Assembly (NCBI GenBank): GCA_963790305.1
Contig: CAWBOC010000009.1
Location: forward strand, 32,001 to 96,000
Direction of reading: 5' to 3'
Length of the DNA stretch: 64,000 nucleotides
DNA from: an uncultured Gemmatimonadaceae bacterium
GTDB taxonomy: Bacteria > Gemmatimonadota > Gemmatimonadetes > Gemmatimonadales > Gemmatimonadaceae
Shown here: positions 8,750-27,352 of the stretch, piece by piece
How positions within the stretch are numbered: position 1 is the stretch's first letter
Layout of the letters: the number at the start of each line of letters is the position of its first letter
Made by a program: the position numbers and the translations under genes
Notes under the pieces: generated by a model
What the model was told of the DNA's origin: nothing
Database searches by the model: none
What the model saw: only the letters and a program-made list of their open reading frames with translations

Positions 8750-8823
8750 TGGGCGAAGAGGGACTCGAACCCCCGACATCCTGCGTGTAAGGCAGGCGCT
8801 CTAACCAACTGAGCTATTCGCCC
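8750..8823 (-). tRNA. tRNA-Val (TAC), no encoded CCA
   Basis: GGGCGAATAGCTCAGTTGGTTAGAGCGCCTGCCT-TAC-ACGCAGG...GGTTCGAGTCCCTCTTCGCCCA cloverleaf. Confidence 0.96.
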
Positions 8824-8888
8824 GAACGCGCGGATGCACGTGCCGCCGGGAGCCGCAAAAGCCCCGAAGCCGGACGCCGCGCGCGCCG

Positions 8889-9059: not shown

Positions 9060-10120
9060 AGGCGTTTAGTGTACCCGGGCTCACAAATGGTGTCAAGAAA
9101 ACCCGAGGTGCTCGAGGCACGTCGAGGTGCGTCGAGGTGCTCAAGGTGCGGCTGCGGTTCTGGGCGCGAGGCTTGCCCTCGATCACCTCGAGCACCTGGA
9201 GCACCTTGGTCTCCAAGCAACGCCGCCAACGCACTCTCCCGCGCCGCACGCTCCGCGGCGGCATCGGCGGCCCGCATCGCCTCCAGGCGCCGACGGTCAC
9301 GGCGCCGCCGCGCCACGTAGAGGGGCACCACGACGAGCATCAGCAGCGCCGCCGCCAGCGAGAGATCGGCCGCGATCGCGAGGGCGCCGTACTGCCGGCG
9401 GGTCCGCTGTCGCCATCGCTCCTCGAACTGCGCCTGGGTCACGCCGAAGGCGCGACGGATCGAGACCTCCAGCGATCGCGTTTCGCGCCAGTACTGGAAG
9501 AAGAGCGTGAGCCCGCGCTCCGGATCCAGCGCGGCGAGCTCCGCGACCGCCCGATGCGCGAGCGCGTACGCGGCGTCGGCGCGCGAGGCGCCGCCGGCGA
9601 ACGTCGCATCGAGCGAATCGAGCGTCGGCATTCCGCGCACGAGCAGGGCGACGCTCGTCGCGAGCACCTCTTCTCGACCCCATTCCCCTGCCGCGACGCT
9701 GGCGTAGCCCTCGTGGAACCATCGCGGCGGGAGGTCGCCTAACGCCTCGTCGAGCGCGAGGTGCGCCAGCTCGTGCCGCAGGACGACCACGCGGGGATCG
9801 CCGGCATCGGAGCCGGCGGTGCGGCCCTGCATGATGATCGTGCGCTGCGCGGGAAACGCGATCGCGGCGCCCCACTCCGGGGCCGCGGGACCGATCCATT
9901 CACGAAATCGCCGCTCGTCGGGTGCCACCGCGATGACGACGCGGGCGCGCGGCCGCGGCAGCCAGGGGAAGCTGTCCCGCTCGGCCGCGGCGGTGAGCAG
10001 CGAGCGCATGAGCTGGTTGTCACTCGGATACCCGATGATCGTGAAACGATCCCGGACGAGGCGATGTGGCGCGCTCGGTTGTGCGAAGAGAGATGATGCG
10101 AGAACGACCGCCGCGATCAG
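8939..10120 (-). CDS. Peptidase MA-like zinc metalloprotease with signal peptide and C-terminal TM; start and stop uncertain
   Basis: LRHELAH followed by PRWFHEG; TM AAALLMLVVVPLYV; the tail overlaps a promoter and a small ORF, so the true stop is probably near 9180. Confidence 0.75.
   Translation of the reverse strand: MIAAVVLASSLFAQPSAPHRLVRDRFTIIGYPSDNQLMRSLLTAAAERDSFPWLPRPRARVVIAVAPDERRFREWIGPAAPEWGAAIAFPAQRTIIMQGRTAGSDAGDPRVVVLRHELAHLALDEALGDLPPRWFHEGYASVAAGEWGREEVLATSVALLVRGMPTLDSLDATFAGGASRADAAYALAHRAVAELAALDPERGLTLFFQYWRETRSLEVSIRRAFGVTQAQFEERWRQRTRRQYGALAIAADLSLAAALLMLVVVPLYVARRRRDRRRLEAMRAADAAAERAARESALAALLGDQGAPGARGDRGQASRPEPQPHLEHLDAPRRASSTSGFLDTICEPGYTKRLCPIRKRGRGGARHCGGVPRFSRLASGTRISPAEELPWHP
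9068..9096 (-). promoter_or_regulatory. Near-consensus sigma70 promoter
   Basis: TTGACA-17nt-TACACT, 8 nt upstream of ATG 9059. Confidence 0.75.
9104..9210. repeat. Inverted 9-mer tandem repeats (GAGGTGCTC / GAGCACCTS)
   Basis: cgaggtgctcgaggcacgtcgaggtgcgtcgaggtgctcaaggtgc ... cacctcgagcacctggagcacctt. Confidence 0.6.
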
Positions 10121-11017
10121 GCCGTGGCGCGCGACCGCGAGAGCGAGCCTCCACCCTCGACGTGCTTCAGCATCTCTCCGCAGCGCTTTCCCCATGGATT
10201 GAACTTGTTCGTGCGATGTCCGTCGCGCCACGCATCCATGGCCGCGTCCTTCTGCTCATCGAACCAGAGCGCGCGGCCGAGCTCGAAGTACGCCTCGACG
10301 AGATTCGGGCCGATTTGCAGCGTCTTCTTGAAGAAGGTCTGCGCATCCTCGTACATCTCGCGCTCGAGATACACGAGACCGAGGTAGAAGTGCGCGTACA
10401 GCGTCGCCTTCCGGTCGTTGTCGAGACGGATGGCCTTCGACAGATGCTCGATCGCCTCACCGAAGATGCGCTTCTTGAGGCAAATGTAGCCGACGTTGAT
10501 GCGCGCGAGCGCGTTGGCCGGCTCGCGCATCAGCACCTTCTGGAAGTTCAAGAGCGCGTCGTCGTACTTCTCCTGGAGCATCTGCGCCCATCCCAACAGG
10601 GACTCCGACTGCGGATCGTCGGGCGCGAGCTGCAGCGCACGCGTCAGTGCCTTCTCGGCGCCGTCGTACTCCCCGAGGGAGATGAGGCTCCATCCCTTCT
10701 CGATGAACGTCGAAGCGCCGAGGTGGTCCGCCATGGGCTTCGGACGCTCCGGAGCGAACTGTGGGGCGGCGCCGGGCGAGGTCGACGTCGCGCTCACCGG
10801 GGCCGCCGCCGCCTGCGAGGACTTCCACTTCTCGACGAGCCGCTTTACGTCGTCCTTGAGCGTCGAGAGCTCCGCGATCTGCGCTTCGACCTGCTTGAAG
10901 AGCGAGACAATGTCGCCCTTGAGCGCTTCGCGCTCAGCGGGCGTCGACGCCGCGTCGAGGCGCGCGTTGATGCGCCGCATAACGGGACCGCAAATCGCCA
11001 GCCCCGCCGTCAGGCAT
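10117..11017 (-). CDS. Coiled-coil plus TPR protein (apparent frameshift near 10975)
   Basis: N-terminal coiled coil, then five TPRs (AEKALTRALQLAP, ALARINVGY, AHFYLG, AYFELG); probable ATG at 11017 overlapping the cheW stop region. Confidence 0.8.
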
Positions 11018-11489
11018 TGTGGGTCGCTCCATCCGCCGCACGCTCGAGCACGAGGCGCTCGTCGGTCGTCAGCAGCCTCGTCACCTCGAGGAAGACGATG
11101 AGGCGATCATTGCGACGCACCACACCGCGCAGGAACTCGGCGGAGAGGCCGCGAAAGAGCGGCGGTGGTGGCGCCAACTCGTCCGACGTCGGGCTGGCGA
11201 CCTCGAGGACGGCGTCCACGATGGCGCCGATCCAGTCGTTCCCCACCGAGAAGACGAGAATGCGCGACTCCGGCCGTGGCTCGATGCTCTCGAGGCCAAA
11301 GCGCAGACGCAGATCGATCACCGGGATGATCCGGCCTCGATACTCGATGACTCCGTCCACCCATTCCGGCACGTTGGGAATGGGCGTCGGCGGCTGGTAG
11401 CGGAGCACGCGCTCCACCGAATAGATGTCGGCGGCGAACAAGTCATCGCCAAGCCGGAAGGTAACGAGCTGCTGTGCGACCGCGGTCAT
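11010..11489 (-). CDS. cheW: CheW coupling protein
   Basis: QLVTFRLG, PTPIPNVPEWVDGVIEYRGRIIPVIDLR, IGAIVDAV; ATGA overlap with upstream cheW. Confidence 0.9.
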   Translation of the reverse strand: MTAVAQQLVTFRLGDDLFAADIYSVERVLRYQPPTPIPNVPEWVDGVIEYRGRIIPVIDLRLRFGLESIEPRPESRILVFSVGNDWIGAIVDAVLEVASPTSDELAPPPPLFRGLSAEFLRGVVRRNDRLIVFLEVTRLLTTDERLVLERAADGATHNA

Positions 11490-12144
11490 ACCGCCTCCGT
11501 GAGCTGATCCGCCAAACACGCCAGCGCCAGCGACTCGGCGTCGATGAGCGCGAGAAGATCGGCCCCGCGACGGATGACCCCGAGAAGCACGTTGTCATCG
11601 TTGTCGGGGATCGGTGCCCGTCGAACCGCCGCGCCATCGATCGTGAGCACATCCTCGACGTCGTCGACCGCGAGGCCCAGCCGCTTCTCGCGCGATCGCA
11701 GAACGAGCACCGCCGCGGCATCGCGTCCAAGCGCAACGCGCAGCACGCGCTCGGGGGAGTAGATCGGAACGAGCCGCTCCCGGAGCTCGAACACACCCAG
11801 CAGGTGGTCGGGCATCTCCGGCAGATGATGGACCGAGGGCAGCTCGATGGCCTCCTCGACCGCCCCGAGATCGACGGCGAACCGCTCATCTCCGACCCGA
11901 AACACCAGCGTGTCGGACAGCCCTTCCCGCGCTGCGATGGCCTCCCGCAGTGGACGTCGGGTCGGCCCCGATGGCTCTTGATCTTCGAACCGGCGCAGGC
12001 GCCAGCGGCGCTGGAAGCGCTAGAGGCGCTAAAGGCGCTCGGACAGCGTCGGAGCCTCACTGGTGCGTCACTGCCGTCGCGCTCCGCTTGCGCAGGCGTG
12101 CGGCGTGAGCGCTTTCGGCTGTCCGGCTTCTTCTTCTTCGTCAT
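11486..12144 (-). CDS. cheW: CheW-like protein with low-complexity N-terminal extension (frameshifted)
   Basis: FRVGDERFAVDL, LPEMPDHLLGVFELRERLVPIY, LGLAVDDVEDV; start uncertain. Confidence 0.75.
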
Positions 12145-12227
12145 AGCTCGGTACTCGTTGGAGCGCACTGGCTCCAGAGCGGTTAAGTCGAGCGCCTTCA
12201 GCGCCGCCTAGCGCCTCTAGCGCCTCT
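12004..12227. repeat. Pair of inverted 9-mer tandem arrays (AGAGGCGCT / AGCGCCTCT)
   Basis: gcgctggaagcgctagaggcgctaaaggcgct near 12008-12039 and agcgccttcagcgccgcctagcgcctctagcgcctct at 12191-12227. Confidence 0.6.
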
Positions 12228-12258
12228 GACTGAACGGACAGTTCACGCGGAGGCGGCG

Positions 12259-13341
12259 TCACATCACCCCGCTACCCCTGAAGGTCAGCAAATCGGTGAC
12301 GGCGCCGGCGATCGCCGGCAGCGGAAGCACCTGGTCGATTCCCCCCGCCTGCAGCGCCGCGTGCGGCATTCCGTAGATGATCGACGTCGCCTTGTCTTGA
12401 GCGACACCAAGCCCGCCGGCTTCGTGAATGGCCCGCATCCCTTCCGCCCCATCGCGTCCCATGCCTGTCAGCACCACGCCGATCGCCGCTGCGCCGAAGA
12501 CCTCGGCGACGGACTTGAAGAGCGGGTCCGCCGACGGACGCACTCCCCACACCGGCGGTGAGCTGTCGAGCGAGATGACCGGAACTCCGCCCTGAACGCG
12601 CACGCGCATGTGCTGGCCGCCTGGAGCGAGATACACCCGATTGTGCACGACGCGCTCACCATCGCACGCCTCGGCCACGGTGAGTCGCGAGTGAAGGTCG
12701 AGGCGATCGGCCAGGCTCTTCGTAAAGCCTGCGGGCATGTGCTGCACTATGAGCACGGCGGCATCGAGGTCGGGCCGGAGCGCGGGAATGAGATCGGCCA
12801 GGGCCCGCGGTCCGCCGGTGGACGCGGCGATCGCCACGGCACGCGTGGCCCAGGAGCCACCGCCAGCGATGGCCCGTCCAGCCATCGGCGGGTCGGCGCG
12901 GCGAGAGAGCATGGGCATGCCGCGCAGATTCACTTCGCGCGACGCGCGGAGTGCGTCGAGCAGCCGATCGCGAACGCTATCGAGATCGAGTGAGATCGGC
13001 CCGCTCGGCTTCTTGACGAAATCGACCGCCCCGAGCTCGAGGGCCCGGATGGCCGGATCGCGTCCCGACTCGGCCGCCGCGCCGCTCAGCATCACCACCG
13101 GGCGCGGTGTCTCGCTCATGATGTAGCCCAGCGCACCGATGCCATCGAGCTCGGGCATCTCGATGTCCAGCGTGACGAGATCGGGATCGAGGGCGTGAAT
13201 CTTCTTCAGCGCTTCGAGGCCGTTGCGCGCCGTCCCGACGACGCGGAACTCCGCCGAGCCATCGATCATCTCGGAGACGAGCTTGCGCATGAAGGCGCTG
13301 TCGTCGACGACGAGGACCGTCGGCAGCCTAGAGGATGACAT
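12259..13341 (-). CDS. cheB: Chemotaxis methylesterase, REC-CheB
   Basis: VVDDSAFMR, TLDIEMP; catalytic ASTGGP, QHMP, LTGMGRDG. Confidence 0.96.
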   Translation of the reverse strand: MSSSRLPTVLVVDDSAFMRKLVSEMIDGSAEFRVVGTARNGLEALKKIHALDPDLVTLDIEMPELDGIGALGYIMSETPRPVVMLSGAAAESGRDPAIRALELGAVDFVKKPSGPISLDLDSVRDRLLDALRASREVNLRGMPMLSRRADPPMAGRAIAGGGSWATRAVAIAASTGGPRALADLIPALRPDLDAAVLIVQHMPAGFTKSLADRLDLHSRLTVAEACDGERVVHNRVYLAPGGQHMRVRVQGGVPVISLDSSPPVWGVRPSADPLFKSVAEVFGAAAIGVVLTGMGRDGAEGMRAIHEAGGLGVAQDKATSIIYGMPHAALQAGGIDQVLPLPAIAGAVTDLLTFRGSGVM

Positions 13342-13819
13342 GCCCGGCCCTCAGCGATTTCACCGTGAGGCGGCCATCGCGGACGTCGAAGTACACGCTG
13401 CGACCGTAATCCCCACCGACTTCCTGCGCGACGATCGGAATGCCCGCGTGCTCGAGTGCGGCCCGCGTCGCGACCACGTTCCTCTCCCCGATTTGAAGCC
13501 CCGTCGCCGACAGCAGCGAGGTGAACATGCTCGCGCCGCCGACGATCTTGGCCCGCATGCGCCCCGTGCGCGCGCCTAACGCCTGCATGCGCTCGCACAG
13601 GAGCGGCACCGCCGTCGACGGGAACTTCGCCCGGTTGGACCGGTCCTGCGACATGCCAGTGCTCGGCAGGAGCACGTGCGCCAGTCCGCCGATGCGCGCT
13701 TCCGGGTCGTGCAGCGCGATCGCCACGCAGGAGCCCAGCCCCACCGTGACGAGGAGTGTGCCGCCATTGGCGACGGCAAAGTCCGCCACCTTCACGCGGA
13801 TCTCGGTCGGGGCGCTCAC
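13328..13819 (-). CDS. cheD: Chemoreceptor glutamine deamidase CheD
   Basis: GLGSCVAIAL, GGLAHVLLP, AKIVGGASMF, IGERN, VGGDYGRSV. Confidence 0.95.
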   Translation of the reverse strand: MSAPTEIRVKVADFAVANGGTLLVTVGLGSCVAIALHDPEARIGGLAHVLLPSTGMSQDRSNRAKFPSTAVPLLCERMQALGARTGRMRAKIVGGASMFTSLLSATGLQIGERNVVATRAALEHAGIPIVAQEVGGDYGRSVYFDVRDGRLTVKSLRAGHVIL

Positions 13820-14640
13820 GGCTTCCGGAAGATGCGCTCGCGCGGATTCACCGGCACGAACAGGTTTCGCGTGGGACCGAGGAGCGTTTCCACTTTTCCG
13901 AGGACGAGAAACCCGCCCGGCACGAGCGCGTCGAAAAACCGCTGGAAGAGCAGCTCCTGGGAAACGCGGTCGAAGTAGATGATGACGTTGCGACAGGTGA
14001 TGAGGTCGAGCCCCCCCGACGGTGTCGGCTCGTGAAGCAGGTCGCGTCGCTCGAACTGCACCATCGCCTTTACGCGTGGATCGAGCGAGTGGGGCGGCTT
14101 GGGCGTGAAGTACCGGCGTCGGATCGCCGGCGGCGTGTCGGCGAAGGCGTCCTCGCCGAAGGTGCCACGCTCCGCCGCCTTGAGACTCAGGCGATCAATG
14201 TCGGTCCCGAGGATCATGATGCGGGACAGCGCTTTCTCATCCTTGCGTTGCATCGCCTCGCGGTGCAGCAGGATCGCGAGCGAGTAGGGCTCCTCTCCCG
14301 ACGCGCAGCCCGCGCTCCAGCACCGAATGTGCTCGTCGCTCGCTGGCCACAGGGCGGGAATCACATCCTCGGCGATGGCGGCGAACGTCTCCCAGTTTCG
14401 AAAAAGCTTGGTGACGTTGATGGTGAGCGCATCGAGCAGGAGCTCGTACTCGCGCGCGTCGCCATCGAGGATCGCGGCGTAGTCGCGATAGGTATGGACA
14501 CCGCGGGCACGCATACGCACCGCGATGCGGCGACGAAGGCATTTTTCCTTGTAGCTGGCGCACCCGAAGCCGCGCTCACGCGAGATCTTCTCCGTGAGCG
14601 CGGCGAACTCCGCGTCGGCCGGCTGCTGCTGGACGCTCAC
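13816..14640 (-). CDS. cheR: Chemotaxis methyltransferase CheR
   Basis: TINVTKLFRN, WSAGCASGEEPYS, GTDID, CRNVIIYFD; GTG 14640 overlaps the upstream stop. Confidence 0.95.
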   Translation of the reverse strand: MSVQQQPADAEFAALTEKISRERGFGCASYKEKCLRRRIAVRMRARGVHTYRDYAAILDGDAREYELLLDALTINVTKLFRNWETFAAIAEDVIPALWPASDEHIRCWSAGCASGEEPYSLAILLHREAMQRKDEKALSRIMILGTDIDRLSLKAAERGTFGEDAFADTPPAIRRRYFTPKPPHSLDPRVKAMVQFERRDLLHEPTPSGGLDLITCRNVIIYFDRVSQELLFQRFFDALVPGGFLVLGKVETLLGPTRNLFVPVNPRERIFRKP

Positions 14641-16256
14641 ATCACCGTCCGGACGAGGTCGAGATTGGTGCGAATGAGCGCGTTCTCGGGATCCAGCTCG
14701 AGCGCTTTCTCCCAGCACTCGAGCGCCGCCTCGCGCTCGTGCTTGCGATAGCGAATGTTGCCCATCTTGAACCACACGTCGTGCCCCTGCCCCGGCGCCA
14801 GCCGTGCGGCACGCTCGTACGATTCCAGTGCGCGATCGTACTGCCCAGCGCGATAGTGGCAGTCGCCGAGGTTCTTGTGCAGGTGCGGCAGCCCGCTGTC
14901 GTCGCCGAGGCCGGTTTCAGCCGCCTCCACTGCCTGACGATACTGCCCCGCGCGCTCGAGGAGCGTCGCCTTGAGATTGTGGAGCGCCGCCACGTGCGGA
15001 TGCACGGTGAGCGCCTCGTCCACCAGCGCCGAGGCGCGCTCGAAGTCGCCGCCGAGCGCCGCGGCCAGGGCGGCGTAATGGAACCAGGGGGCCGTCGGTT
15101 TGCGCTTGCCGAACAGCGGCCGCGCCGCCGCGAGGAGCGCGTCACCCTCGTCGAGCTGCCCGCGCCTGAGGGCCACGATGCCAAGCGCGATCTGCACGCG
15201 AGGGTCCGCCCCGCCCCCGCGACTCACCGCTTCCTCGAGCGCGATCTGCGCGTCATCGAGCCGCCCGGTCCGCTCGAGCACGAAGGCGAGGTTGTGGAAG
15301 ACCGCCGCCGGAGCGTTCGGTTGGCTTGCCGCCTCGCGCAACGACTCCTCGGCCTGCGGCAGGCGTTCGTTACGCAGGTGCACGAGCGCCATGTAGAAGA
15401 GCGCCTGCCCGTCGTTCGGCCGCAGCTCGGCGACACGTCGGAACTCGCGCGTGGCTTCCTCGTACATGCCGGTCTTGTAGAAGGCGATGCCGAGGTTGCG
15501 GTGCTCCTCGACGCGCGCCTCCCGGACGACGGCATCGGACGCTTTCGACTTGCCGATGCGGTGCAGAAAGCCGGCGGTCGCGAGACCGTAGAGCGCCTTG
15601 CCGACCTCGAACTCGCCGAGGCCCGACTCATCGACGAGTGCAGCGACATCGCGCCGCCCGTCGACCAGCGGGATGAGCTGCTCCTGCTCCATCGTGAGCT
15701 CGGCATCACTGGCGGCCAGCTTGGTGCGATCGAGCTCGAAGATGATGTCGAAGCTCGGGATCTTCTTCTCGATGAGGCTCCACTCGTCGACACGCCGTGC
15801 CCCCTCGAGCAGCAACGACTCCGGGTTGATCGACACCAGAAAGTCGCGCTCGTCAGGCAGCACGTCGGCCTCGAAGCTGAACGTGCCCTGCGTCCAGGTG
15901 AAGAGGAAATACACGGCCTCCTCGATCTGGAGACGGATGTACCGGTGCAGCTCCTCGCGCGTGAGGATCTTCTGCTCGATGAGGATCTCACCGAGCCGCT
16001 TGTCGCGCTGGCGACTCTGGGCCTGGATCGCGGAGTCGAGCTCCTGCTGCGTGATGAGCCCGTTCTTGACGAGAATGTCGCCGAGGCGATCGCGGCGGTT
16101 CACGATCGACGCGTACGAGATACGACCGCGCGAGAAGTACACCGTGCCGAAGCTGCTGCGGTCCGCCACGCTCAGACATCCCGTCTTCTGCCCCATGGCG
16201 AGCAGCTGGAGGACGTCCGGAAGGCTGGCTTCGCGAAGACTGCCTTTGATCGCCAT
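14637..16256 (-). CDS. DUF4388 (PatA-N-like) plus MshEN-like motif plus TPR protein
   Basis: KGSLREASLPDVLQLL...KTGCL; tandem RLG motifs; LLLEGARRVDEW; C-terminal TPRs. Confidence 0.85.
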   Translation of the reverse strand: MAIKGSLREASLPDVLQLLAMGQKTGCLSVADRSSFGTVYFSRGRISYASIVNRRDRLGDILVKNGLITQQELDSAIQAQSRQRDKRLGEILIEQKILTREELHRYIRLQIEEAVYFLFTWTQGTFSFEADVLPDERDFLVSINPESLLLEGARRVDEWSLIEKKIPSFDIIFELDRTKLAASDAELTMEQEQLIPLVDGRRDVAALVDESGLGEFEVGKALYGLATAGFLHRIGKSKASDAVVREARVEEHRNLGIAFYKTGMYEEATREFRRVAELRPNDGQALFYMALVHLRNERLPQAEESLREAASQPNAPAAVFHNLAFVLERTGRLDDAQIALEEAVSRGGGADPRVQIALGIVALRRGQLDEGDALLAAARPLFGKRKPTAPWFHYAALAAALGGDFERASALVDEALTVHPHVAALHNLKATLLERAGQYRQAVEAAETGLGDDSGLPHLHKNLGDCHYRAGQYDRALESYERAARLAPGQGHDVWFKMGNIRYRKHEREAALECWEKALELDPENALIRTNLDLVRTVM

Positions 16257-18170
16257 CAGCGGAGATCCTCAATGATGCGCCCGGCAAGGTCGGGCCAATC
16301 CCACACGGTCTTTTCGCGGTCGCCGAAGTGCGTGTCGCCTGACGGCGTGGCGCGATGCACCGGCGTTGACCGGCGCACCGATGTCACCCGCGCGACATCA
16401 GCGCTCGTAAGGCGCCGGTTGTCATTGCCCGCCATCTCGGCCAGCCGTTCGCCCACGCGAAGCACGTCGCGGGCGGTTGGCATCTCCAGCGCAGCCGCCG
16501 CGTGCAGCACCTCGGGAGCGGGCTCCACCCCTGCGGCAGCGAGTGCGCGGGCGATGAGCTTTTCGCGCAGCAGTCGGTCCGGTGGCTGGATCTCGACGAC
16601 GAGACCACCCTCGAACCGCGAGCGCAGCCGTTCGTCCATCTCGGTCAGCGTGCGCGGCGCGCGCGAGGAGGTGAGGACGACCTGCTTCCCCGCCTCCATG
16701 AGGGTGTTGAAGAGATGAAAAAACTCGTCCTGCGTTCGCTCCGTGCCAGCGAACATCTCGATCTGATCGATCAGCAACGCGTCCACACGGCGGTAGCGTC
16801 CACGCCAGGTCTCGATCGCGCTGTCCTGAAGCGCCGCGATCAGCTCGTTCACGAAGTCGCTGGCGTTCACGCAGGCGATCGTCATCGCGCCGCCACTCGC
16901 GCCGGCGAGCTCGTTCCCGATCGCATGCAGGAGATGCGTCTTCCCCACGCCGGGACTTCCGTGGATGACCAGCGGGTTGTACCGGCGGCCCGGCTCCTCG
17001 ACGATCGCGTCCGCGGCATGTACCGCCAGCTGGTTGGAGGGACCGACCTCGAACTCGGCACGAAGGAGCGACCCGTCGGGCGGCGGGGGCGGGGCCGAGT
17101 CGGCGCGAAGTGTCTCCGCCAATCGCTCGAGATCCTCGATCGCGTCCGGGTCGCGAAACTGCACCGAGCCGCGCTGCGTGGGATCGAGCGCGACGATCTC
17201 CTGCTCCAGTGCGCGCAGCCGCGTGACCTTCTGCTCGAACTGCTGAAGAAGCGCGTCGGGATCCGCGGTATCGGGGCTCTGAAGCGCGCGCTCGAGCGCG
17301 GCTGTTCGGTACCCCTGCGTCCGCCATTCCGCTGTCAACTCGACGAGCCTCACTCGACGCGCATCGACATGCTGCGCGACGGCGACCGCCAGGCCCGAGA
17401 GGAAGCTTTCGTATTCTCCGCTCTTGGGGGCGAGACGCTGCGGTCCGCTGCCGTTGCCGCGATCGCCCAGCAGGCCCTGAATGCTCTCCACGGTCACATC
17501 GCCTTCGCCCAGTGTCTGAAACGCGATCAACCGGTTGATGGCGCCATGCATCTCGCGCACGTTGGCGAAGACGACGCGTGCAACCTCCTCGACGACGCCG
17601 GGTGGGAACGTCACGTCGCGCTCGTCGCACCGGCGCCGCAGGATCGCCACGCGCGTTTCGTAGTCGGGCGCGCCCATGTCGACGAGCAAGCCGCCGGAGA
17701 AGCGCGTCATCAGGCGGTCGTCGAGATCGGCGATCTCCGCCGGCGGCCGATCGCTGGTGAGCACGATCTGCTTGCCGCTCCTCTGCAACACGTTGAACAG
17801 CCGCAGCAGCTCGCTTTGCGTCTCCTGCCGTCCGGTGAGAAACTGCACATCGTCGAGGAGCAGGACATCGAGCGCCGCAAAACGCTGGCGGAACGCGTCC
17901 GTCTCCCCGCGCGTCACCGCCTGATGCAGAATGCTCGACGAGCTCATCGGTCGTGACGTACTCGGCCTGGAGATCGGGCTGCAGCTGCTTCGCGAGCTGT
18001 CCGATGGCGGACAGCAGGTGCGTCTTGCCGAGCCCCGATGCCGCGTAAATGAACAACGGGTTGTAGGCCGCTCCCGGCGACTGCGCGACTGCGCGCGCCG
18101 CCGAGACGGCGAGGCGGTTGGCCGCGCCGACGACGAAGGTGTCGAAGCGAGAGCGGACGTCGAGGGCCAT
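16256..18170 (-). CDS. Tandem double DnaA-type AAA+ protein lacking domains I and IV (apparent frameshift near 17935)
   Basis: Two copies of F..G..N.LA...YNPL.I...G.GKTHLL.AIG...D...GKQ.VLTS.R...RL..RF.GGL. Confidence 0.88.
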
Positions 18171-18173
18171 GCG

Positions 18174-18782
18174 CTACCGGCTCCCGGCCTCGGCCGGCGA
18201 CGCCAGCCGCTTGAGGACGAGCTCCGCGATGCCCCGCAGCGTCTCGAAGACCCCGATGCCGTGCAGCGCGTCGGCAGCGAAACGTGGCACGCCGCGGAAG
18301 TTCAGCGCCTCATCGAGCTCATCCACCGACATGATCATGTCTCGCGGCAGATCCTGCTTGTTGTATTGCAGAACGAGCGGGACCGTCCGAGGGTCCATGC
18401 CCTGGTTGCCAAGGTTGGCGTGCAGGTCCTGGAGACTCTCGATGTTTTCGTCCAGCTGTCGCGACTGACTGTCGGCGACGAAGACCACACCGTCCGCGCC
18501 CTGAAGGACGAGCTTGCGCGTCGCCTGGTAGTAGACCTGTCCCGGGACGGTGTAGAGCTGCAGCCGCGTCGTGAAGCCGGAGATCGTTCCGAGATCGAGC
18601 GGGAGGAAATCGAAGAAGAGCGTGCGATCGGTCTGCGTGGCGAGCGACACCATCTTGCCCTTCCGCTCGTCAGGCACCTGGCCGTAGACGTAATGCAGAT
18701 TCGTCGTCTTCCCCGACCGCCCAGGGCCGTAGTAGACGATCTTGCACGTGATCTCGCGGGACGCGTAGTTGACGAGAGACAC
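18174..18782 (-). CDS. mglA: MglA-family small GTPase
   Basis: REITCKIVYYGPGRSGKTTNL, DRTLFFDFLP, YTVPGQV, DGVVFVADS, NKQD. Confidence 0.95.
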   Translation of the reverse strand: MSLVNYASREITCKIVYYGPGRSGKTTNLHYVYGQVPDERKGKMVSLATQTDRTLFFDFLPLDLGTISGFTTRLQLYTVPGQVYYQATRKLVLQGADGVVFVADSQSRQLDENIESLQDLHANLGNQGMDPRTVPLVLQYNKQDLPRDMIMSVDELDEALNFRGVPRFAADALHGIGVFETLRGIAELVLKRLASPAEAGSR

Positions 18783-18787
18783 GATCG

Positions 18788-19285
18788 TCAGGACGAGGGG
18801 GTGATGTTGCGCCGTCCGGGCGCGCGCCCGAACAGCATCGCGAGGTTGCGATTCAGCTCGACCTCGAAGTTCTCGTCGAGCATGGGGGCGGCATCGGGGA
18901 CCTGCACCTTCGACTGCAGGAGGGCCGTGCGCAGCTCCTCGAAGTATAGTTGCACGAGACCGAGCGAGCTCTGCTCATCGAACACGGTGAGGAGCAGACA
19001 TGTCCCACGTGGCGTCGCCGCTTCCGCGAGGTAGAGTCGCCGCTTGGCACCCGCGTGAAAGACATCGCGAAAGCCTTTTCCGTCAAGTGTGCGACCGAGC
19101 TCGCGCACCGTCGCGTAAATGCCGGCCGCGAGCGCCGCCGCCGACATGACGTCGACCGCGCGCGAGAACCCGCTCTGTCCGAGCACCTGCCCGCTCGGAA
19201 AAATGAGCAGCGCGAACGTGACACGGGCATCGTCGACGAAACGCTTCAATGGCGCCTCGACCCAGGGCTCGGCGACGCTGATCAT
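18788..19285 (-). CDS. mglB: MglB-like Roadblock/LC7 protein (putative GAP of MglA)
   Basis: ALLIFPSGQVL, AALAAG, LLLTVFDEQSSLGLVQL; directly upstream of mglA. Confidence 0.8.
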   Translation of the reverse strand: MISVAEPWVEAPLKRFVDDARVTFALLIFPSGQVLGQSGFSRAVDVMSAAALAAGIYATVRELGRTLDGKGFRDVFHAGAKRRLYLAEAATPRGTCLLLTVFDEQSSLGLVQLYFEELRTALLQSKVQVPDAAPMLDENFEVELNRNLAMLFGRAPGRRNITPSS

Positions 19286-19632
19286 ATGACGAGCCGCTCC
19301 AGCGCCTTGAGCATCTCCATCCGCATGAGGCCGATATTCGCGCGCGCGTCGGCGACGATCACGAGCACCATGTCGTTCTTCCCCGCGGCGCACACGTGCC
19401 CTTCCGTCGCGCGGAGGCGAAGGAACGTGACGCCTCCGAGTCCGGCGGCATCCGCCGACAGGCGCGCCTTGCGATAGAGGGACGCCGCGAGCGCCGCGAA
19501 CGCCGGGCCCTTCATCCCCACGTGCAGCGTCGCGTCGATGATGACGCCGTCGGTCTCGTCGACGAGCAGGCTGCCACGCACGCCGCGTTGGCGCGTGAGG
19601 GCCGCGATGATGGGCGTCAGATTGGTCTTCAT
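19282..19632 (-). CDS. Roadblock/LC7 domain protein
   Basis: GVRGSLLVDETDGVII, AALAASL, LVIVADARANIGLMRMEM; ATGA overlaps at both ends. Confidence 0.85.
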   Translation of the reverse strand: MKTNLTPIIAALTRQRGVRGSLLVDETDGVIIDATLHVGMKGPAFAALAASLYRKARLSADAAGLGGVTFLRLRATEGHVCAAGKNDMVLVIVADARANIGLMRMEMLKALERLVI

Positions 19633-20468
19633 CCGCCCCCCTTCTTCAGCCAGGTGCCCGCGCGCTCGACGCACCGGTCGAGCACGCGATGCACGAGTCC
19701 GAGGGGCATGGCCTTCGACGCGGCGACCAACAGCAACGCATCATCGCGCATGGGGGCCATCGCTACGACGGCGGCGTCGGTCTCGACGGTGAGCGACGAC
19801 CAGTCACCGAGTCCGAGGTGACGCATGGCCCGACGCGCCTCGTCACTGACCCCGCTGAGCTCGGCACCCACTTCCTGCGCGACGTCGCGGCCGTCCTGCG
19901 TCAGGTACGTGCCGGCCATGACGAGCCCGGTGGCGTCGAGGAGGAGCGCGGTGTGCTCGCCGCCTTCGGTGATCTCGTCGAAGAGGCTGAGGTGCTCAGG
20001 GTGCTCAGGGTGCTCAGGGGAACGGCGGTCCGCACCCTGAGCACCCTGAGCACCCTGAGCACCCTCTCGCAAATGCACCCGCACCATGGCGAGCGCCGTC
20101 GCCACCGTCTCGTCCTCGCCATCGAGCTCCGACGCTTCGCTCAAGTAGGTCTGCGCTTCGACGTACTTGCCTTGCTTGAACAGGACGTACCCCATTCCCT
20201 TGCGGGCGCCGAGGTGGGCCGGGGCGATGCGCCGGACCATGTCCCACTCGTCGAAGGCGCGCTCGAGCTCGCCGCGGTCGACGGCAATGCGCGCGAGCAA
20301 ATCGTGCGACTCGGCGTCGTGCGGATGCCGCTCGAGGCCGCGGAGCGCGACCTTGAGCGCGAGATCGAGCTGCCCGCCCTTCCGCAGCGCTTCACCCAGC
20401 TGCAGGTAGACGGGGCTCGCGGGGTCGCGGGCCAACTCCTCGCTCAGGCGGCGAATGTCGTCAGCCAT
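19629..20468 (-). CDS. TPR-Roadblock/LC7 fusion protein
   Basis: N-terminal TPRs; C-terminal ALLLDATGLV...LLLVAASKAMPLGLV. Confidence 0.8.
   Translation of the reverse strand: MADDIRRLSEELARDPASPVYLQLGEALRKGGQLDLALKVALRGLERHPHDAESHDLLARIAVDRGELERAFDEWDMVRRIAPAHLGARKGMGYVLFKQGKYVEAQTYLSEASELDGEDETVATALAMVRVHLREGAQGAQGAQGADRRSPEHPEHPEHLSLFDEITEGGEHTALLLDATGLVMAGTYLTQDGRDVAQEVGAELSGVSDEARRAMRHLGLGDWSSLTVETDAAVVAMAPMRDDALLLVAASKAMPLGLVHRVLDRCVERAGTWLKKGGG
19991..20063. repeat. Perfect 29-bp inverted repeat made of 9-mer tandem units, inside the CDS
   Basis: (GGTGCTCAG)x3 GG, 15-nt loop, exact reverse complement. Confidence 0.9.
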
Positions 20469-21606
20469 GGGCGCGCCCCGTCAACAATCCGTGGAGGGCG
20501 GACGCGCTCGCGAGCGCTTCACGCACACGAGCGGCATTCCCGCTGTTAGGCAGCATACGAAGGTAGCGCTCCCATGCCGCCATGGCTTCGCCAAGATCCC
20601 CTCGGGCCGCCGCGCAGTAGCCCGTCTCGAGATGGGTTTCGGCGTGCAGCGGGTCGAGCTGCAGCGCTCGCCGCAGCTCCTCGGCAGCGTCGTTGAGGCG
20701 ACCCGCTTTGCTCAGCGCACGGGCCATGGCGACCCGGGCCTCCGCCATCTGCGGATCGGCCGAGATCGCCTGGCGCGATGCCGCGAGCGATCCTTCCACG
20801 TTGCCGGATTCCAGCAGCGAACGCGCACGCTCAATGTGGGGGCGCGCATCCTCCGGTGCGCCCACGTGCTGCGGCGTCACCAGACGCGGGTCGCGCAGCT
20901 CGATGACACCCGTCGTCACCATCCCGTAGACGACCTTCGCGATGTCGAAATCGCTTTGCCCCAGACGCAATGCGATCTCGCGCAGGTCCTTGGCCCCATC
21001 GATCTCGGCGAGCACTTCCCACTCGTTGGGCAGCAGGTCGAGCAGCGACGGGTGATCGGCCCGCAAGGGCGCGAGCACCGGCACCACTCCGACGTGTGGC
21101 ACCTTGCCTTCTATGCGCGACCATTCGTCGATGCGGCGCGCGCCCTCCATGAGCAGCGACTCGGTCGAGATGCGCACCAATGCCTCGCTCGGCGCGTCCG
21201 AGATCGGGCGCTCCTCGAAGGAGAAGTATCCCTCTCGCCACGACATCAGCTCGAACACCACTTCCTCAATGTGGAGCCGCACGTGCCGCTCGAGCTCCTT
21301 CGGCGTCACCGCTCCCATCTCGAGGAGAATCTCGCCGAGTCGCCTCGCGTCTCCCTTCTGTTGCGTCGCTCGTGCCCGGTCCAGATCCGCTTCCGAGATC
21401 TTTCCCGCCCGCACCAGCATGTCGCCCAATCGATGCGGATTGCTGCGGATGGAGGCGAACACGACAGCGCCACCGTCGAAGAAGACGGTGCCCTGATTGT
21501 CGCGCAGCGCCGATACGACGCTCAGCGCGCCCGTCTTCCGGCTCAGGTCGAGCAGCTGGAAGACGTCGTGGATTCCAAGCTCGCGCAGCGGTCCTTCGAT
21601 CGGCAT
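20461..21606 (-). CDS. DUF4388 plus MshEN-like motif plus TPR protein (paralog of 14637..16256)
   Basis: EGPLRELGIHDVFQLLDLSRKTGAL, tandem RLG motifs, SLLMEGARRIDEW, TPRs. Confidence 0.85.
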   Translation of the reverse strand: MPIEGPLRELGIHDVFQLLDLSRKTGALSVVSALRDNQGTVFFDGGAVVFASIRSNPHRLGDMLVRAGKISEADLDRARATQQKGDARRLGEILLEMGAVTPKELERHVRLHIEEVVFELMSWREGYFSFEERPISDAPSEALVRISTESLLMEGARRIDEWSRIEGKVPHVGVVPVLAPLRADHPSLLDLLPNEWEVLAEIDGAKDLREIALRLGQSDFDIAKVVYGMVTTGVIELRDPRLVTPQHVGAPEDARPHIERARSLLESGNVEGSLAASRQAISADPQMAEARVAMARALSKAGRLNDAAEELRRALQLDPLHAETHLETGYCAAARGDLGEAMAAWERYLRMLPNSGNAARVREALASASALHGLLTGRAHG

Positions 21607-21608
21607 CG

Positions 21609-24314
21609 CTAGGCGACCTCCTCGCGCGAGCGGAAGATGCGCTGCAGGTCGGCCGCGGTCCGCGCATCGCGTCGCGCGCGTCGTGCGAACTCGCTGGCGG
21701 GCTCCACATCGACCACACGCTGCCACTTCGCGATCGCGTCGCGATACCGATGCTGCTCGGCGAGCAGAACCCCCTGGTAGTAGAGCGCTCCGGCATGATC
21801 AGGATCGAATCGCACAATGCGCTCGAACCCCGTGCGAGCATCGTCTCGCCGCTCGAGCGCCAGCAGCGTCTCGCCGAGCGCCAGGAGCGCGTCGAGGTTA
21901 TAGGGGTCGCGCTTCAACAGGTCGACGAGCGGGCCGAGCGCTTCCTTGGCGCGGCCGAAGTTGCGCCGGACCGCGGCAAGCTCGAGCGTCGCCTCGACGT
22001 ACGTAGGAACGGCTTCGAGCGCGGCGAGCAGATGCTCCTCCGCTTCCTTGGCCTGACCGCGCTCGGCCACCAGGCGCGCAAGCTCGAACCGCACGACCGC
22101 GAAATCCCGGTCCAGGTCGATGGCATCGCGATAGGCGATGATCGCGCCCTCGACGTCCCCCACCGCGCGCGCGACGTCGCCGATCTTCTGGAGAACATCC
22201 GGGCGCGCGGGCGCGAGACGACGCGCCTTGTCGAGATGCTCCAGAGCGCCCGCCGGGTCACCCTCGTCCGCGCGCGCCGAGGCGGCGAGCAGGAGCCCCT
22301 CCACGCTCGTTCCATCGACAGCGAGGAGCTCCTCGGCGACGACACGGGCTTCGGTGGCACGGCCGAGCACGAGCAGCGCGCGTGTCTCGCCTAACAGGGC
22401 GCGTGTCGGGACGTGACCGTTCAGGCCGCGCGCCTCGCGATAGCGCTCCAGCGCCTCGCCGAACAAGCCCTGGCGCGTGAACACATCACCGAGCAGCGCG
22501 AGCCCTTCCCCGCGGTCCCCGCCGCGCGTCATCGCGCGGCTGATCTCGGCCGACGCCCGCTCGAGCAGCCCTTTGGTGAGGTAGTCCACCGCCATCGCGT
22601 AGGGGTTCGCTTCCCCCGGCGCTGCGGTGTCCGCCTTCGCCGGCTTGAGCGACGTGAACAGCGAGTCGAGGACGCGTGCGTCGAAGGCGAACTCTTCGAC
22701 GCTCTCGTCCTGGCGCTTCTCACCGCCAAGGTCGGGGACGATCGAGAGGTCGGGATCCTCGTACTCGAGATCGATCGCCAGCTCGAACTTTTGCGCGACG
22801 TAGTACGGATCGATCTCGAGCGCGCGCTTCGTCTCACGCAGGGCGCCCTCGAAATCGCCGAGGTTGGAGAGCGCGAAGCTGAGATTGTAATGCGCTTCGG
22901 CGTACTCGGGACGTGCCTGAATGGCGCGGCCGAAGGCGTTGCGCGCATCCTCGTACTTCTTGAGCTCCGCCAGCACCAGACCGATCCCGTTCCACGCGAC
23001 GGGCTGCTCGGGCTCAACGGAAAGCACCTGGCGATACGCCTCCAGCGAGAGCTGAAGGCGCTTCCCCTTGAACAGCAGCAGGGCGAGGTTGAGCCACGCC
23101 TTGGTGAACGCCGCTTCGATACCGAGCGCGGCACGGAAGGCGTCGATGGCCTCTTCCGTTTGGCCGCCATGGTACAACGCCACGCCGAGATTGTTGTGCC
23201 CGATCGCGTACCGCGGATCGGACTCGAGTGCGGTGCGATAGCTCTGCGCCGCGTCGGCGTACCGGCCTTCCTGATGGAGTGCGACGCCCCGCTCCGCCCA
23301 GAGCTTGGGGCTGCCAGGCTGCTCGGCGACGAGCTGCTCGTAGAGCTCGTAGGCGGCGCGCGTATCCTTCCGCAGCAGGTGCACCTCGGCCATGGCCTGC
23401 ATAACGAGCAGGCGATCCTCACCCCGCTCCAGCGCAATGCGATACTCGCGTAGCGCCTCGGCGTAGTAGGCCTTCTGGCGAAACGCGAGCCCGAGATTGA
23501 AATGGGCGAGCGTCTTCTCTTCCGCGACCTCGAGCCGCTCGGCCGCGCGTCGACGCTGCTCGGGCAGGAGCGTCTCGTACCGAGCGTCCTTGTATCGCTC
23601 CAGGGAGAGGTTCGCCTGCGCGCGCGAGAGCGTCGGGTTGAGCGCGATCGCCCTCTTTTGCGCGGCACGTGCGTCCTCATGACGTCCCATGTCGCCGAGC
23701 ACGAACCCCATGAGGTAGTGCGCGTCGGGATTGTCGGGGTTGAGCTCGAGCGCGCGCTTGAGCGCGGCCAGCGCCTCGTCGTTGAGGCCGCGGTTGTAGA
23801 TGACCTCGCCGAGGTAGAAGTTCACCACCGAGCTGTTGGGCTCGAGCGCGAGCGCGCGCTCGAACCACTGCTGCGCCTTCTCGAGATCCCCGCTCGCCTT
23901 CTCGGCGAGCCCGAGCTGCACGATGGCACCGAGGTCTTCCGGGTGGTGCAGCAGGAGCGCGCTGAACTCGCGCACCGCTTCCGTCACGTTGCCGAGCGAG
24001 GCGTACGCGCGCCCGAGCTCCCAGCGGGCATCGCGGTCGTCGGGGCGTTGGCGGAGCCGCTCCGTCAGCTCGGAGACGCGACGGTCGTAGTAGCCGGTGT
24101 TGAAGTACGCGATCTCGAGGTTCCGCTGCGCGACCTGCATCTTCGAGTCGAGCTCGAGCGCGCGCGTGAATGCGGACACCGCTTCCTCGTAGAGTCCCTT
24201 GTTGAAGTAGAGAACCCCGAGGTTGTTATGCGCCCCCGCATCCGACGGATCGATCCGTCGAGCGAACGAGCGCAGGACCTCGCGGTCGCGCTCGGATGTG
24301 AGGACGGGGGTCAT
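21609..24314 (-). CDS. Large cytoplasmic multi-TPR protein (901 aa)
   Basis: Many TPRs (AHNNLG, AHYLMG, AHFNLG, AWNGIG, AHYNLS); no signal peptide. Confidence 0.88.
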   Translation of the reverse strand: MTPVLTSERDREVLRSFARRIDPSDAGAHNNLGVLYFNKGLYEEAVSAFTRALELDSKMQVAQRNLEIAYFNTGYYDRRVSELTERLRQRPDDRDARWELGRAYASLGNVTEAVREFSALLLHHPEDLGAIVQLGLAEKASGDLEKAQQWFERALALEPNSSVVNFYLGEVIYNRGLNDEALAALKRALELNPDNPDAHYLMGFVLGDMGRHEDARAAQKRAIALNPTLSRAQANLSLERYKDARYETLLPEQRRRAAERLEVAEEKTLAHFNLGLAFRQKAYYAEALREYRIALERGEDRLLVMQAMAEVHLLRKDTRAAYELYEQLVAEQPGSPKLWAERGVALHQEGRYADAAQSYRTALESDPRYAIGHNNLGVALYHGGQTEEAIDAFRAALGIEAAFTKAWLNLALLLFKGKRLQLSLEAYRQVLSVEPEQPVAWNGIGLVLAELKKYEDARNAFGRAIQARPEYAEAHYNLSFALSNLGDFEGALRETKRALEIDPYYVAQKFELAIDLEYEDPDLSIVPDLGGEKRQDESVEEFAFDARVLDSLFTSLKPAKADTAAPGEANPYAMAVDYLTKGLLERASAEISRAMTRGGDRGEGLALLGDVFTRQGLFGEALERYREARGLNGHVPTRALLGETRALLVLGRATEARVVAEELLAVDGTSVEGLLLAASARADEGDPAGALEHLDKARRLAPARPDVLQKIGDVARAVGDVEGAIIAYRDAIDLDRDFAVVRFELARLVAERGQAKEAEEHLLAALEAVPTYVEATLELAAVRRNFGRAKEALGPLVDLLKRDPYNLDALLALGETLLALERRDDARTGFERIVRFDPDHAGALYYQGVLLAEQHRYRDAIAKWQRVVDVEPASEFARRARRDARTAADLQRIFRSREEVA

Positions 24315-24317
24315 GCG

Positions 24318-24938
24318 TCAGGCCAGTCGTACCGCGCGAAGGATGGCTTGCAGCGACGCGAGGTCCGGCAGCAGGAGGAAGAAGCCGCGGAGATGCTCGT
24401 TCTGCTCCTGGAGGAAGAACTGGCTCTCGACGTAGAAGACGTGATCGCGATCGGTGCCGAACTGCAGGAAGGCTGTCGACAGGATCGCGGAGGACATGTC
24501 GATGGCGAGGCTCGGCGGCGACGGCAGGAGCATGAGGCCCATGAAATCGCTCAGCGCGTTCATGTACGCGCCGCTGAGAATGTTTCCAGCCTCCTTGATC
24601 GCCGACTGCTCGAGCGCACCCATCTCCTGCGAGGAGCCGGACGGGCGGCGCAGCATGAGCTCGGCGAGCCGCATGGCCGTCGGTCGCGGAAAGACGAGCA
24701 GCGTTCGGCCCGTGAGGTCGCCGAGCATGTGCATCAGCACGGCGGCAATCGGCTCTTCCGGCTCGCTGAGCTGCGTCGGCACGTCCTCGAGCGACGAGAT
24801 GTTGATCGTCGGCACGCTGATCATGATCGTGCTGCCGGTCATCTGCGAAAGCGCCGTCGCCGCATGGCCCGCCCCGATGTTGGCCACTTCGCGCAGTGCA
24901 TCGAGCTGGACGGCCTTCAATTCCTTGATGTCGTTCAT
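24318..24938 (-). CDS. cheC: CheC-family CheY-P phosphatase
   Basis: Two phosphatase motifs, DALREVANIGAGHAATALS and SAIKEAGNIL. Confidence 0.93.
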   Translation of the reverse strand: MNDIKELKAVQLDALREVANIGAGHAATALSQMTGSTIMISVPTINISSLEDVPTQLSEPEEPIAAVLMHMLGDLTGRTLLVFPRPTAMRLAELMLRRPSGSSQEMGALEQSAIKEAGNILSGAYMNALSDFMGLMLLPSPPSLAIDMSSAILSTAFLQFGTDRDHVFYVESQFFLQEQNEHLRGFFLLLPDLASLQAILRAVRLA

Positions 24939-24946
24939 TCTCTCCT

Positions 24947-26843: not shown

Positions 26844-26849
26844 GGCCCT

Positions 26850-26975
26850 GGGGTCAGGAGTCAGGAGTCAGTGGTCAGGGGGTGTCGGGGTCTAGGTGTG
26901 AGGAGACCGGCTCGCGCATGCCCTGACTCCGACCACCTGACACCCCCTGATCCCTGACTCCTGACTCCTGACCCC
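26850..26975. repeat. Heptamer-repeat hairpin (TCAGGAG/CTCCTGA) filling the cheY-cheA spacer
   Basis: Perfect 22-bp inverted arms at 26850-26871 and 26954-26975. Confidence 0.9.
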
Positions 26976-26978
26976 TCG

Positions 26979-27341: not shown

Positions 27342-27352
27342 CGTTCCCTCCG

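Follow-up and report, generated by a model that had tools for sequence, protein, structure and literature searches.

Two tandem DnaA-type AAA+ modules are encoded in one gene of a soil Gemmatimonadaceae bacterium, and this protein represents a real and conserved variation on the DnaA AAA+ core, set in a signalling context. The gene lies on the minus strand at 16256..18170 of a 64,000-nt stretch of DNA from the uncultured bacterium (assembly GCA_963790305.1, contig CAWBOC010000009.1, positions 32,001-96,000). This whole stretch is called the window, and its coordinates are used throughout. The protein has neither domain I nor domain IV of DnaA, its motifs and its gene neighbourhood are conserved, and a canonical dnaA is present elsewhere in the genome. 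The DnaA replication engine seems to have been reused for signalling. With moderate confidence, we favour the view that the protein is an ATP-driven switch or scaffold of a Che/MglA-MglB/PATAN-TPR polarity pathway (TPR, tetratricopeptide repeat) and not a replication factor. The two modules beside mglA had been described in an original prediction made from the DNA letters, which proposed an initiator-clade ATPase co-opted for signalling.

From the N to the C terminus, the protein consists of the DnaA-type module 1, a three-helix repeat of ~100 amino acids (aa), the DnaA-type module 2, a disordered stretch and a conserved C-terminal tail. Residues are numbered after an intact 637-aa ortholog (G004, L007:1261-3171), which is 94% identical to the window copy over residues 81-637. 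The features of the gene are:

16256..18170, minus strand: tandem DnaA-type ATPase gene, ~637 codons with the extra base skipped, stop codon at 16256-16258.
17465..18170, minus strand: AAA+ module 1, base and lid, ortholog residues 1-235, all catalytic motifs conserved.
17930..17931, minus strand: TT, with one T surplus to the congeners, which breaks the frame.
17090..17413, minus strand: helical linker, one copy of an unnamed ~100-aa repeat, ortholog residues ~253-360, with the motif W-x-x-EGY-x-T ... LE.
16379..17077, minus strand: AAA+ module 2, ortholog residues 365-597, Walker A and arginine finger kept, sensor I degenerate, Walker B DQ in the genus.
16259..16324, minus strand: conserved C-terminal tail, EK-x-V-W-x-W-P ... 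R-x-x-E-[ED]-L, a predicted TPR-binding peptide.

Pfam Bac_DnaA (PF00308) is matched twice in the gene, and all of the motifs listed in the original prediction are present in the minus-strand sequence. In 8/8 congeners the two modules are in one protein and not in separate genes. The AAA+ motifs were counted in 55 orthologs:

Walker A lysine: module 1, 55/55; module 2, 51/55.
Walker B: module 1, DD in 55/55; module 2, first D in 52/55, and D in 43 and Q in 5 at the second position.
Sensor I: module 1, D in 50/55; module 2, D in 15, P in 15 and S in 9 of 55.
Arginine finger: module 1, 49/55; module 2, 54/55.
Sensor II arginine: module 1, 51/55; module 2, 43/55.

Judged by sequence, module 1 carries all five site motifs of an active AAA+ protein (Walker A, Walker B, sensor I, arginine finger and sensor II). 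Module 2 likely binds nucleotide, and hydrolysis by this module is doubtful. It had been proposed that module 2 is degenerate at both Walker B and sensor I. The loss of sensor I holds as a family-wide trait and is not specific to the genus, but the DQ form of Walker B is confined to this genus (5/55 orthologs), and 43/55 carry DD. The arginine finger had been noted in both modules and is kept in most orthologs in both. With both fingers retained, each ATP site is probably supplied with an arginine in trans. Two modules closed on each other within one molecule would be unable to do this for both sites, which suggests higher oligomers.

The mean pairwise identity is 0.55 for module 1, 0.42 for the repeat, 0.46 for module 2, 0.54 for the tail, and 0.18 and 0.23 for the two disordered stretches. 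An AlphaFold2 model of the intact ortholog, built on a 49-row alignment, has a pLDDT (predicted local distance difference test) of 84.9 and a pTM (predicted template modelling score) of 0.48. Both AAA+ modules are modelled with confidence. A helical segment spans 254-357, residues 236-265 and 599-620 are disordered, and a short helix at 628-636 ends the chain. In some members from sister orders and divergent lineages (L048-L052, L062 and L066, 549-669 aa), the match of module 2 covers the base sub-domain alone (profile positions ~19-170), which suggests that its lid has been lost or replaced in these proteins.

The protein begins at the first residues of DnaA domain III, and positions 1-103 of the DnaA model TIGR00362 are unmatched. 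Neither Bac_DnaA_C (PF08299) nor DnaA_N (at E <= 0.01) had a Pfam match in the gene, and PF08299 was in none of the 120 best homologs listed. The absence of domains I and IV had been noted in the original prediction, and a Pfam pattern of two Bac_DnaA matches with no Bac_DnaA_C had been expected. The separate canonical dnaA, also expected, was located on contig C5 as a 505-aa frame, which has PF00308 at 238.5 bits and the sole PF08299 match of the genome. The family profile matched solved DnaA domain III (8bv3 and 8btg) with 293 bits, covering positions 3-235 for 8bv3, and solved Hda chains with ~50 bits. The tandem ATPase thus shares with DnaA (PF00308, TIGR00362; 8bv3, 8btg, 2z4r, 1l8q/2hcb) the initiator-clade AAA+ core with Walker A/B, sensor I/II and the box VII arginine finger. 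In contrast to DnaA, it has two modules per chain, no domain I, II or IV, an inserted helical repeat and a C-terminal tail, and its gene sits in a Che/MglA operon while a normal dnaA is found elsewhere in the genome. The score against TIGR00362 was 488.6 bits with a cut-off of 343.9. This total is an annotation trap, because it is reached only by adding up two partial stretches (model positions 104-338 for the one printed).

Between 27802 and 10117, every gene is on the minus strand, with small gaps or overlaps. The order is CheW, CheY, CheA, CheC, a 901-aa TPR protein, PATAN(DUF4388)-TPR, TPR-Roadblock, Roadblock, MglB-like Roadblock, MglA and the tandem ATPase, and then a second PATAN-TPR, CheR, CheD, CheB, two CheW-like proteins and a TPR protein. 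The neighbours of the ATPase gene are:

24318..27802, minus strand: CheC, CheA, CheY and CheW, the upstream arm.
20461..24314, minus strand: PATAN-TPR gene (20461-21726) and the gene of the 901-aa TPR protein (21609-24314).
18788..20468, minus strand: three Roadblock/LC7 genes, MglB-like (18788-19393), a second one (19282-19674) and TPR-Roadblock (19629-20468).
18174..18782, minus strand: mglA-type small GTPase gene, directly upstream of the tandem ATPase.
14637..16256, minus strand: PATAN(DUF4388)-TPR gene, whose product is the predicted docking partner (TPR residues 284-494); its start overlaps the ATPase stop.
10117..14775, minus strand: CheR, CheD, CheB, two CheW-like proteins and a TPR protein, the downstream arm.

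Just 3 nt separate the stop codon of mglA from the start of the tandem ATPase, in agreement with the adjacency that had been claimed. Three Roadblock genes are grouped around the single mglA, and the cluster has three CheW-like genes in all. Neither replication genes nor a gene for a methyl-accepting chemotaxis protein (MCP) were found in the cluster (10117-27802), and 7 MCP matches are located elsewhere in the genome. This neighbourhood is strictly conserved. In 39/39 near loci, the gene is immediately flanked by mglA upstream and by PATAN-TPR downstream, all on one strand. In the distant loci, PATAN-TPR follows in 20/20 and mglA precedes in 18/20. Since G131 belongs to both sets, the distinct loci number 58, with PATAN-TPR downstream in 58/58 and mglA upstream in 56/58; these loci were chosen for holding the gene, and the relatives are not independent. 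Three of the loci (L024, L033 and L066) are from genomes flagged as unpublished (G015, G204 and G125, respectively), and none of the conclusions depends on these three only. Two one-module relatives from two other classes, L092 (G044:C35, 7834-8874, 346 aa) and L093 (G042:C166, 582-1646, 354 aa), have no mglA, and a TPR gene is next to them together with CheY, CheR and CheW. Because these relatives still precede a TPR gene, the TPR protein is the most constant neighbour.

A similar combination is described for Myxococcus xanthus, in which a Che-type pathway (Frz) is likewise encoded together with MglA, Roadblock (MglB) and TPR (SgmX) proteins. According to the available part of PMC11580455, MglA binds the TPR protein SgmX in Myxococcus, and PATAN proteins are among the candidates. 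No DnaA-type ATPase is known to belong to the Myxococcus module described there. The present system differs further in that all parts are in one operon and that there are three Roadblock genes. In Synechocystis, PATAN-domain regulators interact with the pilus motor, according to the portion of the preprint at hand (bioRxiv 10.1101/2021.06.11.447907). These two reports offer a precedent, by analogy, for TPR/PATAN adaptors acting between MglA or Che signalling and type IV pili. PATAN was also noted near mglA by Wuichet and Sogaard-Andersen 2014, and the accessible text of that paper (PMC4316618) mentions no DnaA-like neighbour of mglA. In the present genome, 4 PilT-family matches were above the cut-off, and no flagellin match was found (the genome is 94% complete).

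The C-terminal tail links the ATPase to the PATAN-TPR protein in our predictions. It comprises the last ~22 residues and has a motif, [RD]-E-K-x-[VI]-W-x-W-P ... R-x-[IV]-E-[ED]-L, that all tandem members share. W625 is present in 55/55 orthologs, and E619 and K620 in 53/55 each. The mean identity of the tail is about that of module 1 and higher than that of module 2. The tail is also kept in a 392-aa one-module form with the same synteny (G078), and the two one-module relatives of other classes end in a related W ... E-D-R ... E motif.

The complex of the tail (residues 520-563 of the window open reading frame) with the full downstream PATAN-TPR was predicted from our own alignments, and the calibration is only rough. 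The interface score ipSAE was 0.81, 0.48 and 0.84 in three runs (median 0.81), and the best of three controls was 0.00. The ipSAE mark is reached by 116/157 solved complexes and 2/215 mismatched pairs. The runs had at least 56% of their contacts in common, and the pLDDT of the partner was at least 49. In the predicted interface, tail residues 540-563 run along TPR residues 284-494, and the groove residues N322, E434, K461, N462, D465 and D493 are nearly invariant. On these models, the tail probably docks in the TPR groove of the neighbouring PATAN-TPR. Docking of C-terminal peptides into TPR grooves is known from the EEVD ends of Hsp70/Hsp90 with Hop. There too, a short conserved C-terminal peptide after a disordered region lies along the concave TPR face, as predicted here. 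The two cases differ in that the tail motif is tryptophan-rich and followed by a short helix, the proteins are unrelated, and no solved structure exists for the tail/PATAN-TPR pair.

Signalling co-option fits because of the strict synteny with mglA, PATAN-TPR and Che genes, the separate dnaA and the predicted tail-TPR contact. Upon ATP binding, the modules would associate head to tail through their arginine fingers, like DnaA protomers, both within and between molecules. Hydrolysis of ATP by module 1 would reset the assembly. The tail is predicted to hold the TPR groove of the co-encoded PATAN-TPR adaptor, and the nucleotide state may thereby set the clustering or the availability of this adaptor downstream of MglA. 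The output would probably be type IV pilus polarity.

Several points weigh against this signalling role. One of the three complex runs scored just 0.48, and the fold of the partner is uncertain. Conservation of the TPR interface (0.63) does not significantly exceed that of the remaining TPR region (0.59), and 1222 of 10000 random subsets reach the interface value. The full-length pTM of 0.48 means that the mutual placement of the two modules is not predicted. In two genomes (G144 and G184), the gene is accompanied by PATAN-TPR, but mglA is missing from the neighbourhood. Type IV pilus output is a guess from gene content. In addition, module 2 retains residues by which E. coli DnaA binds single-stranded DNA (ssDNA) and which are superfluous for a signalling role. 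Finally, if the insertion is real, this genome, with its broken frame, does not produce the protein.

The relation to DnaA and Hda was examined by phylogeny, as the original prediction had suggested. In a tree of 79 module sequences, module 1 and three single-module relatives form a clade with a support of 100 in the Shimodaira-Hasegawa approximate likelihood ratio test (SH-aLRT). This clade adjoins the DnaA clade, which contains E. coli and 18 Gemmatimonadota DnaAs (SH-aLRT 90), and module 2 is long-branched. In a second tree the support was 99 for module 1, 99 for module 2 and 81 for both together. Modules 1 and 2 are thus own clades beside the DnaA clade and outside it. A tree in which modules 1 and 2 were held together was 14.5 log-likelihood units better than the free quick search and was not rejected (p-AU 0.82, approximately unbiased test). 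The trees were rooted with a single non-Gemmatimonadota DnaA and Hda, a root by which the order of events is not settled. The topology fits one DnaA-derived ancestor, a subsequent tandem duplication and faster change in module 2.

Given this relationship, the protein might also regulate replication. Its modules would then cap or co-polymerise with DnaA, or supply an Hda-like arginine finger to DnaA-ATP, and initiation would be tied to the polarity state. The residues of the DnaA-DnaA contact are indeed kept in both modules. In box VII, R281 is present in 50/52 of each module and R285 in 46/52 (module 1) and 51/52 (module 2); L290 is kept in 48/52 and 49/52, respectively. The 293 bits of module 1 against solved DnaA domain III point in the same direction. 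However, the cluster is without replication genes, the gene is strictly tied to PATAN-TPR and Che genes, and it was not found in many Gemmatimonadota that have dnaA. Like Hda/HdaA, the tandem ATPase is a DnaA-related AAA+ protein without domain IV, but Hda has a single module, and the Hda models stayed under their cut-offs (TIGR03420, 160.7 versus 194.8; NF005982, 74.4 versus 268; NF051883, 53.5 versus 300). The N-terminal clamp-binding motif of Hda, QL[SDEN]LF or similar, was matched in 0/55 orthologs by a strict regular expression, which is a weak test. We consider a replication role very unlikely. In the original prediction, co-option of an initiator-clade ATPase for signalling is consistent with the synteny, the separate dnaA and the predicted tail-TPR contact, but capping of DnaA or co-polymerisation with it, as a link from replication to polarity, found no support.

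The retained ssDNA-contact residues raise another possibility, a scaffold anchored on nucleic acid. Module 2 would bind ssDNA or RNA through the H and B motifs of DnaA and tether chemosensory and polarity proteins without an MCP to the nucleoid. In E. coli DnaA, Val211 and Arg245 are needed to bind unwound origin DNA, and Arg285 is the arginine finger, as given in the available sections of PMC3287180. At the corresponding columns, module 2 has the hydrophobic I/V at 211 in 44/52, R227 in 45/52, K243 in 30/52 and R245 in 45/52. Module 1 has His at 211 in 37/52, Arg at 243 in 35/52 and Glu at 245 in 43/52; the alignment around columns 243-245 is uncertain by one or two residues. The cluster also has no MCP of its own, which is in line with such a tether. 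On the other hand, the same sections of PMC3287180 state that ssDNA binding by DnaA depends on an oligomer that domain IV places on DnaA boxes, and the tandem ATPase has no domain IV. The residues kept in module 2 may have a structural role, and the module 2 match is a base sub-domain without a lid in at least four sister-order or divergent loci. A nucleic-acid anchor therefore appears quite unlikely. The earlier claim that the protein has no DNA-binding domain holds for domain IV, but module 2 may still make a residual contact with nucleic acid.

The frame of the window copy is interrupted by one base. On the minus strand, the open reading frames 16422..18170 and 16256..17947 (563 aa) overlap, and the former is genuine for the first ~80 codons only. 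The first 82 codons from 18170 match positions 1-78 of Bac_DnaA (E 5e-26), and the 563-aa frame contains two Bac_DnaA stretches (E 3e-77), of which the better one covers residues 298-452 in Pfam. The frames join at GAGCAT-T-CTG. An indel had been suspected near 17935, and it was identified as one extra T at 17930/17931, which is missing in 4/4 aligned congeners. Read through this insertion, the encoded protein is ~637 aa and cytoplasmic.

Two explanations for the extra T were compared. The insertion may be real in this genome, whatever the family does elsewhere, so that the window copy would be a pseudogene. The T is present in the window sequence, and the gene is also frame-broken between module 1 and the repeat in two other genomes (G155 and G220). 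In contrast, all 8/8 same-genus loci encode an uninterrupted protein of 636-637 aa, and both halves of the gene are free of additional stops and of decay. A near-identical soil-metagenome contig from run X1 (315 nt, window 17699-18014, one substitution, depth 2.8) has one base fewer at 17930; it is the only bridging contig (1/1), and none in runs X2, X3 and X4 bridges 17930. The only ileS-level match of the assembly (window 30275-33966, minus strand) is distributed over three frames, with model positions 9-152, 147-594 and 672-848, and no ileS match above the cut-off was found in the assembly. The two breaks in this essential gene point to indel errors in the assembly, and the frame break is most likely an artefact of the same kind. 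An assembly error is the likeliest reading, the copy is probably intact in the organism, and a pseudogene is unlikely. A programmed frameshift was rejected because relatives encode the gene in one frame.

The breaks of the two other genomes lie in L060 (G155, 8823-10819) and L061 (G220, 8965-10943), both in nearly complete assemblies. In G155 the downstream PATAN-TPR is shortened too (422 aa). Sequence error, decay or a genuine split of the gene may account for these breaks.

Homology searches place the conserved ~640-aa family in Gemmatimonadales and in some of the sister orders. The window copy fits the family in its two modules, one helical repeat, W-x-W tail and place between mglA and PATAN-TPR. 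A match far above the DnaA level was found in 37/40 relatives of the order, and not in G011, G019 and G024. In an even sample of the phylum, ~129/201 genomes (row count) had a best E <= 1e-65, and in this search DnaA alone gives E of about 1e-47 to 1e-63. By family (f1-f12), the rows with a match above the DnaA level were:

f1, 27/39; f2, 91/96; f3, 3/3; f4, 4/4; f7, 2/23; f8, 1/3.

The single genome of f5 has a one-module form, and the searched genomes of f6 and f9-f12 gave nothing that exceeded the DnaA level. Nearest large clusters in the ESM Atlas are the same family, which is commonest in Gemmatimonadota. The sources name such proteins 'DnaA/Hda family protein', 'DnaA ATPase domain-containing protein' [Gemmatimonadaceae bacterium] or, at JGI, 'chromosomal replication initiator protein'. 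Our literature search found no paper on a tandem DnaA-type ATPase; the supplementary neighbourhood table of PMC4316618, which was outside this search, may list it.

The linker between the modules, described as helical in the original prediction, is indeed helical, and its identity could be refined to one copy of the unnamed ~100-aa repeat. Modelled alone, it forms three long helices of about 100 residues (pLDDT 84.6). No Foldseek match to the PDB was found at E <= 0.001. The best VIA-align match was the spectrin-like EzrA (4uy3; Z 6.4, root-mean-square deviation 3.0, 111 aligned), but this Z is below the noise level of the tool for helical bundles, no sequence relation is shown, and no fold family is claimed. 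A decayed domain IV was considered for the linker and rejected, since it has no Pfam match and the unit recurs in arrays.

A profile of the linker (A5, 125 positions) was searched against 1.84 billion representatives and matched 487 proteins at E <= 0.001, with 95 at E <= 1e-30. No Pfam model covers the linker or the arrays. Architectures were counted locally by domain in the best 150 of the 487 matches. One repeat was combined with two DnaA modules in 48, with one module in 38, with three modules in 1 and with no module in 34 (mostly fragments). At least three repeats without a DnaA module were present in 24, and six to eight repeats followed by one DnaA AAA+ module in 5. The genome studied here has a single copy of the repeat.

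The spacing of consecutive copies, where these can be detected, is roughly 85-130 residues, and the arrays share W-x-x-EGY-x-[TV]-x-x-LE followed by F-x-x-F-E-x-D-V and D-P elements. Array proteins (P0121, P0122, P0126, P0128, P0134 and P0148), which reach 3143 aa in length, have between 7 and 24 matched stretches, and the maximum of 24 is in a 3090-aa protein (15 by local count). The named members are from metagenome-assembled genomes (MAGs) of Thermoplasmata archaea, some with an N-terminal DUF835, and from Candidatus Wallbacteria. The five proteins with an array and a DnaA module (P0127, P0138, P0151, P0165 and P0256) match Bac_DnaA with 230-243 bits and have no domain IV, and 4/5 have a C-terminal double zinc ribbon. 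Their AAA+ modules group inside the DnaA clade and not with modules 1 and 2. None of the loci of array or array-plus-DnaA proteins was confirmed (P0127 and P0122 in metagenome contigs, P0148 and P0271 in genome contigs).

A further search, confined to proteins of 781-2485 aa, used the AAA+ end of one array-plus-DnaA protein, and six of the listed matches were checked by Pfam (including P0382, P0391, P0290, P0347 and P0309). Among the matches listed, further DnaA AAA+ proteins without PF08299 were found. A long TPR region with a C-terminal Bac_DnaA occurs in two Candidatus Sumerlaeota proteins. MshEN is combined with two Bac_DnaA stretches in a 1892-aa protein, and HEAT repeats with Bac_DnaA and DUF835 in another. 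A Thermoplasmata MAG protein joins Bac_DnaA to a T2SSE (PilB-like) ATPase, and in a 1266-aa Thermoplasmata MAG protein the C-terminal Bac_DnaA is the only match at that threshold. The TPR fusion provides Rosetta-stone-type support for a partnership between DnaA AAA+ modules and TPR proteins, although orthology of the fused modules to modules 1 and 2 is not shown.

The unnamed repeat and the further fusions suggest a larger class. Thermoplasmata archaea do not use DnaA for replication. As a speculative and rather doubtful extension, DnaA-type AAA+ modules may constitute a widespread but overlooked class of switches that polymerise with ATP and serve motility and polarity signalling in prokaryotes instead of replication. 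They would be spread over several bacterial phyla and Thermoplasmata, with TPR, HEAT/DUF835, MshEN, PilB-like, zinc-ribbon and spectrin-like partners. In Gemmatimonadota, the tandem form would then assemble in an ATP-dependent manner into a filament, and by gathering PATAN-TPR adaptors behind MglA this filament would define the active pole.

Such proteins can exceed the cut-off of the DnaA equivalog by their summed score and are named replication initiators, which may mislead origin and dnaA counts in genomes from metagenomes. To our knowledge, nearly all described roles of the DnaA ATPase core are in replication (DnaA, Hda and helicase loaders). If the signalling role is true, the tandem ATPase would be a clear case of the DnaA core serving as a signalling or assembly switch, with a fixed position in an MglA polarity and chemosensory operon and a predicted contact of its tail peptide with the TPR neighbour.

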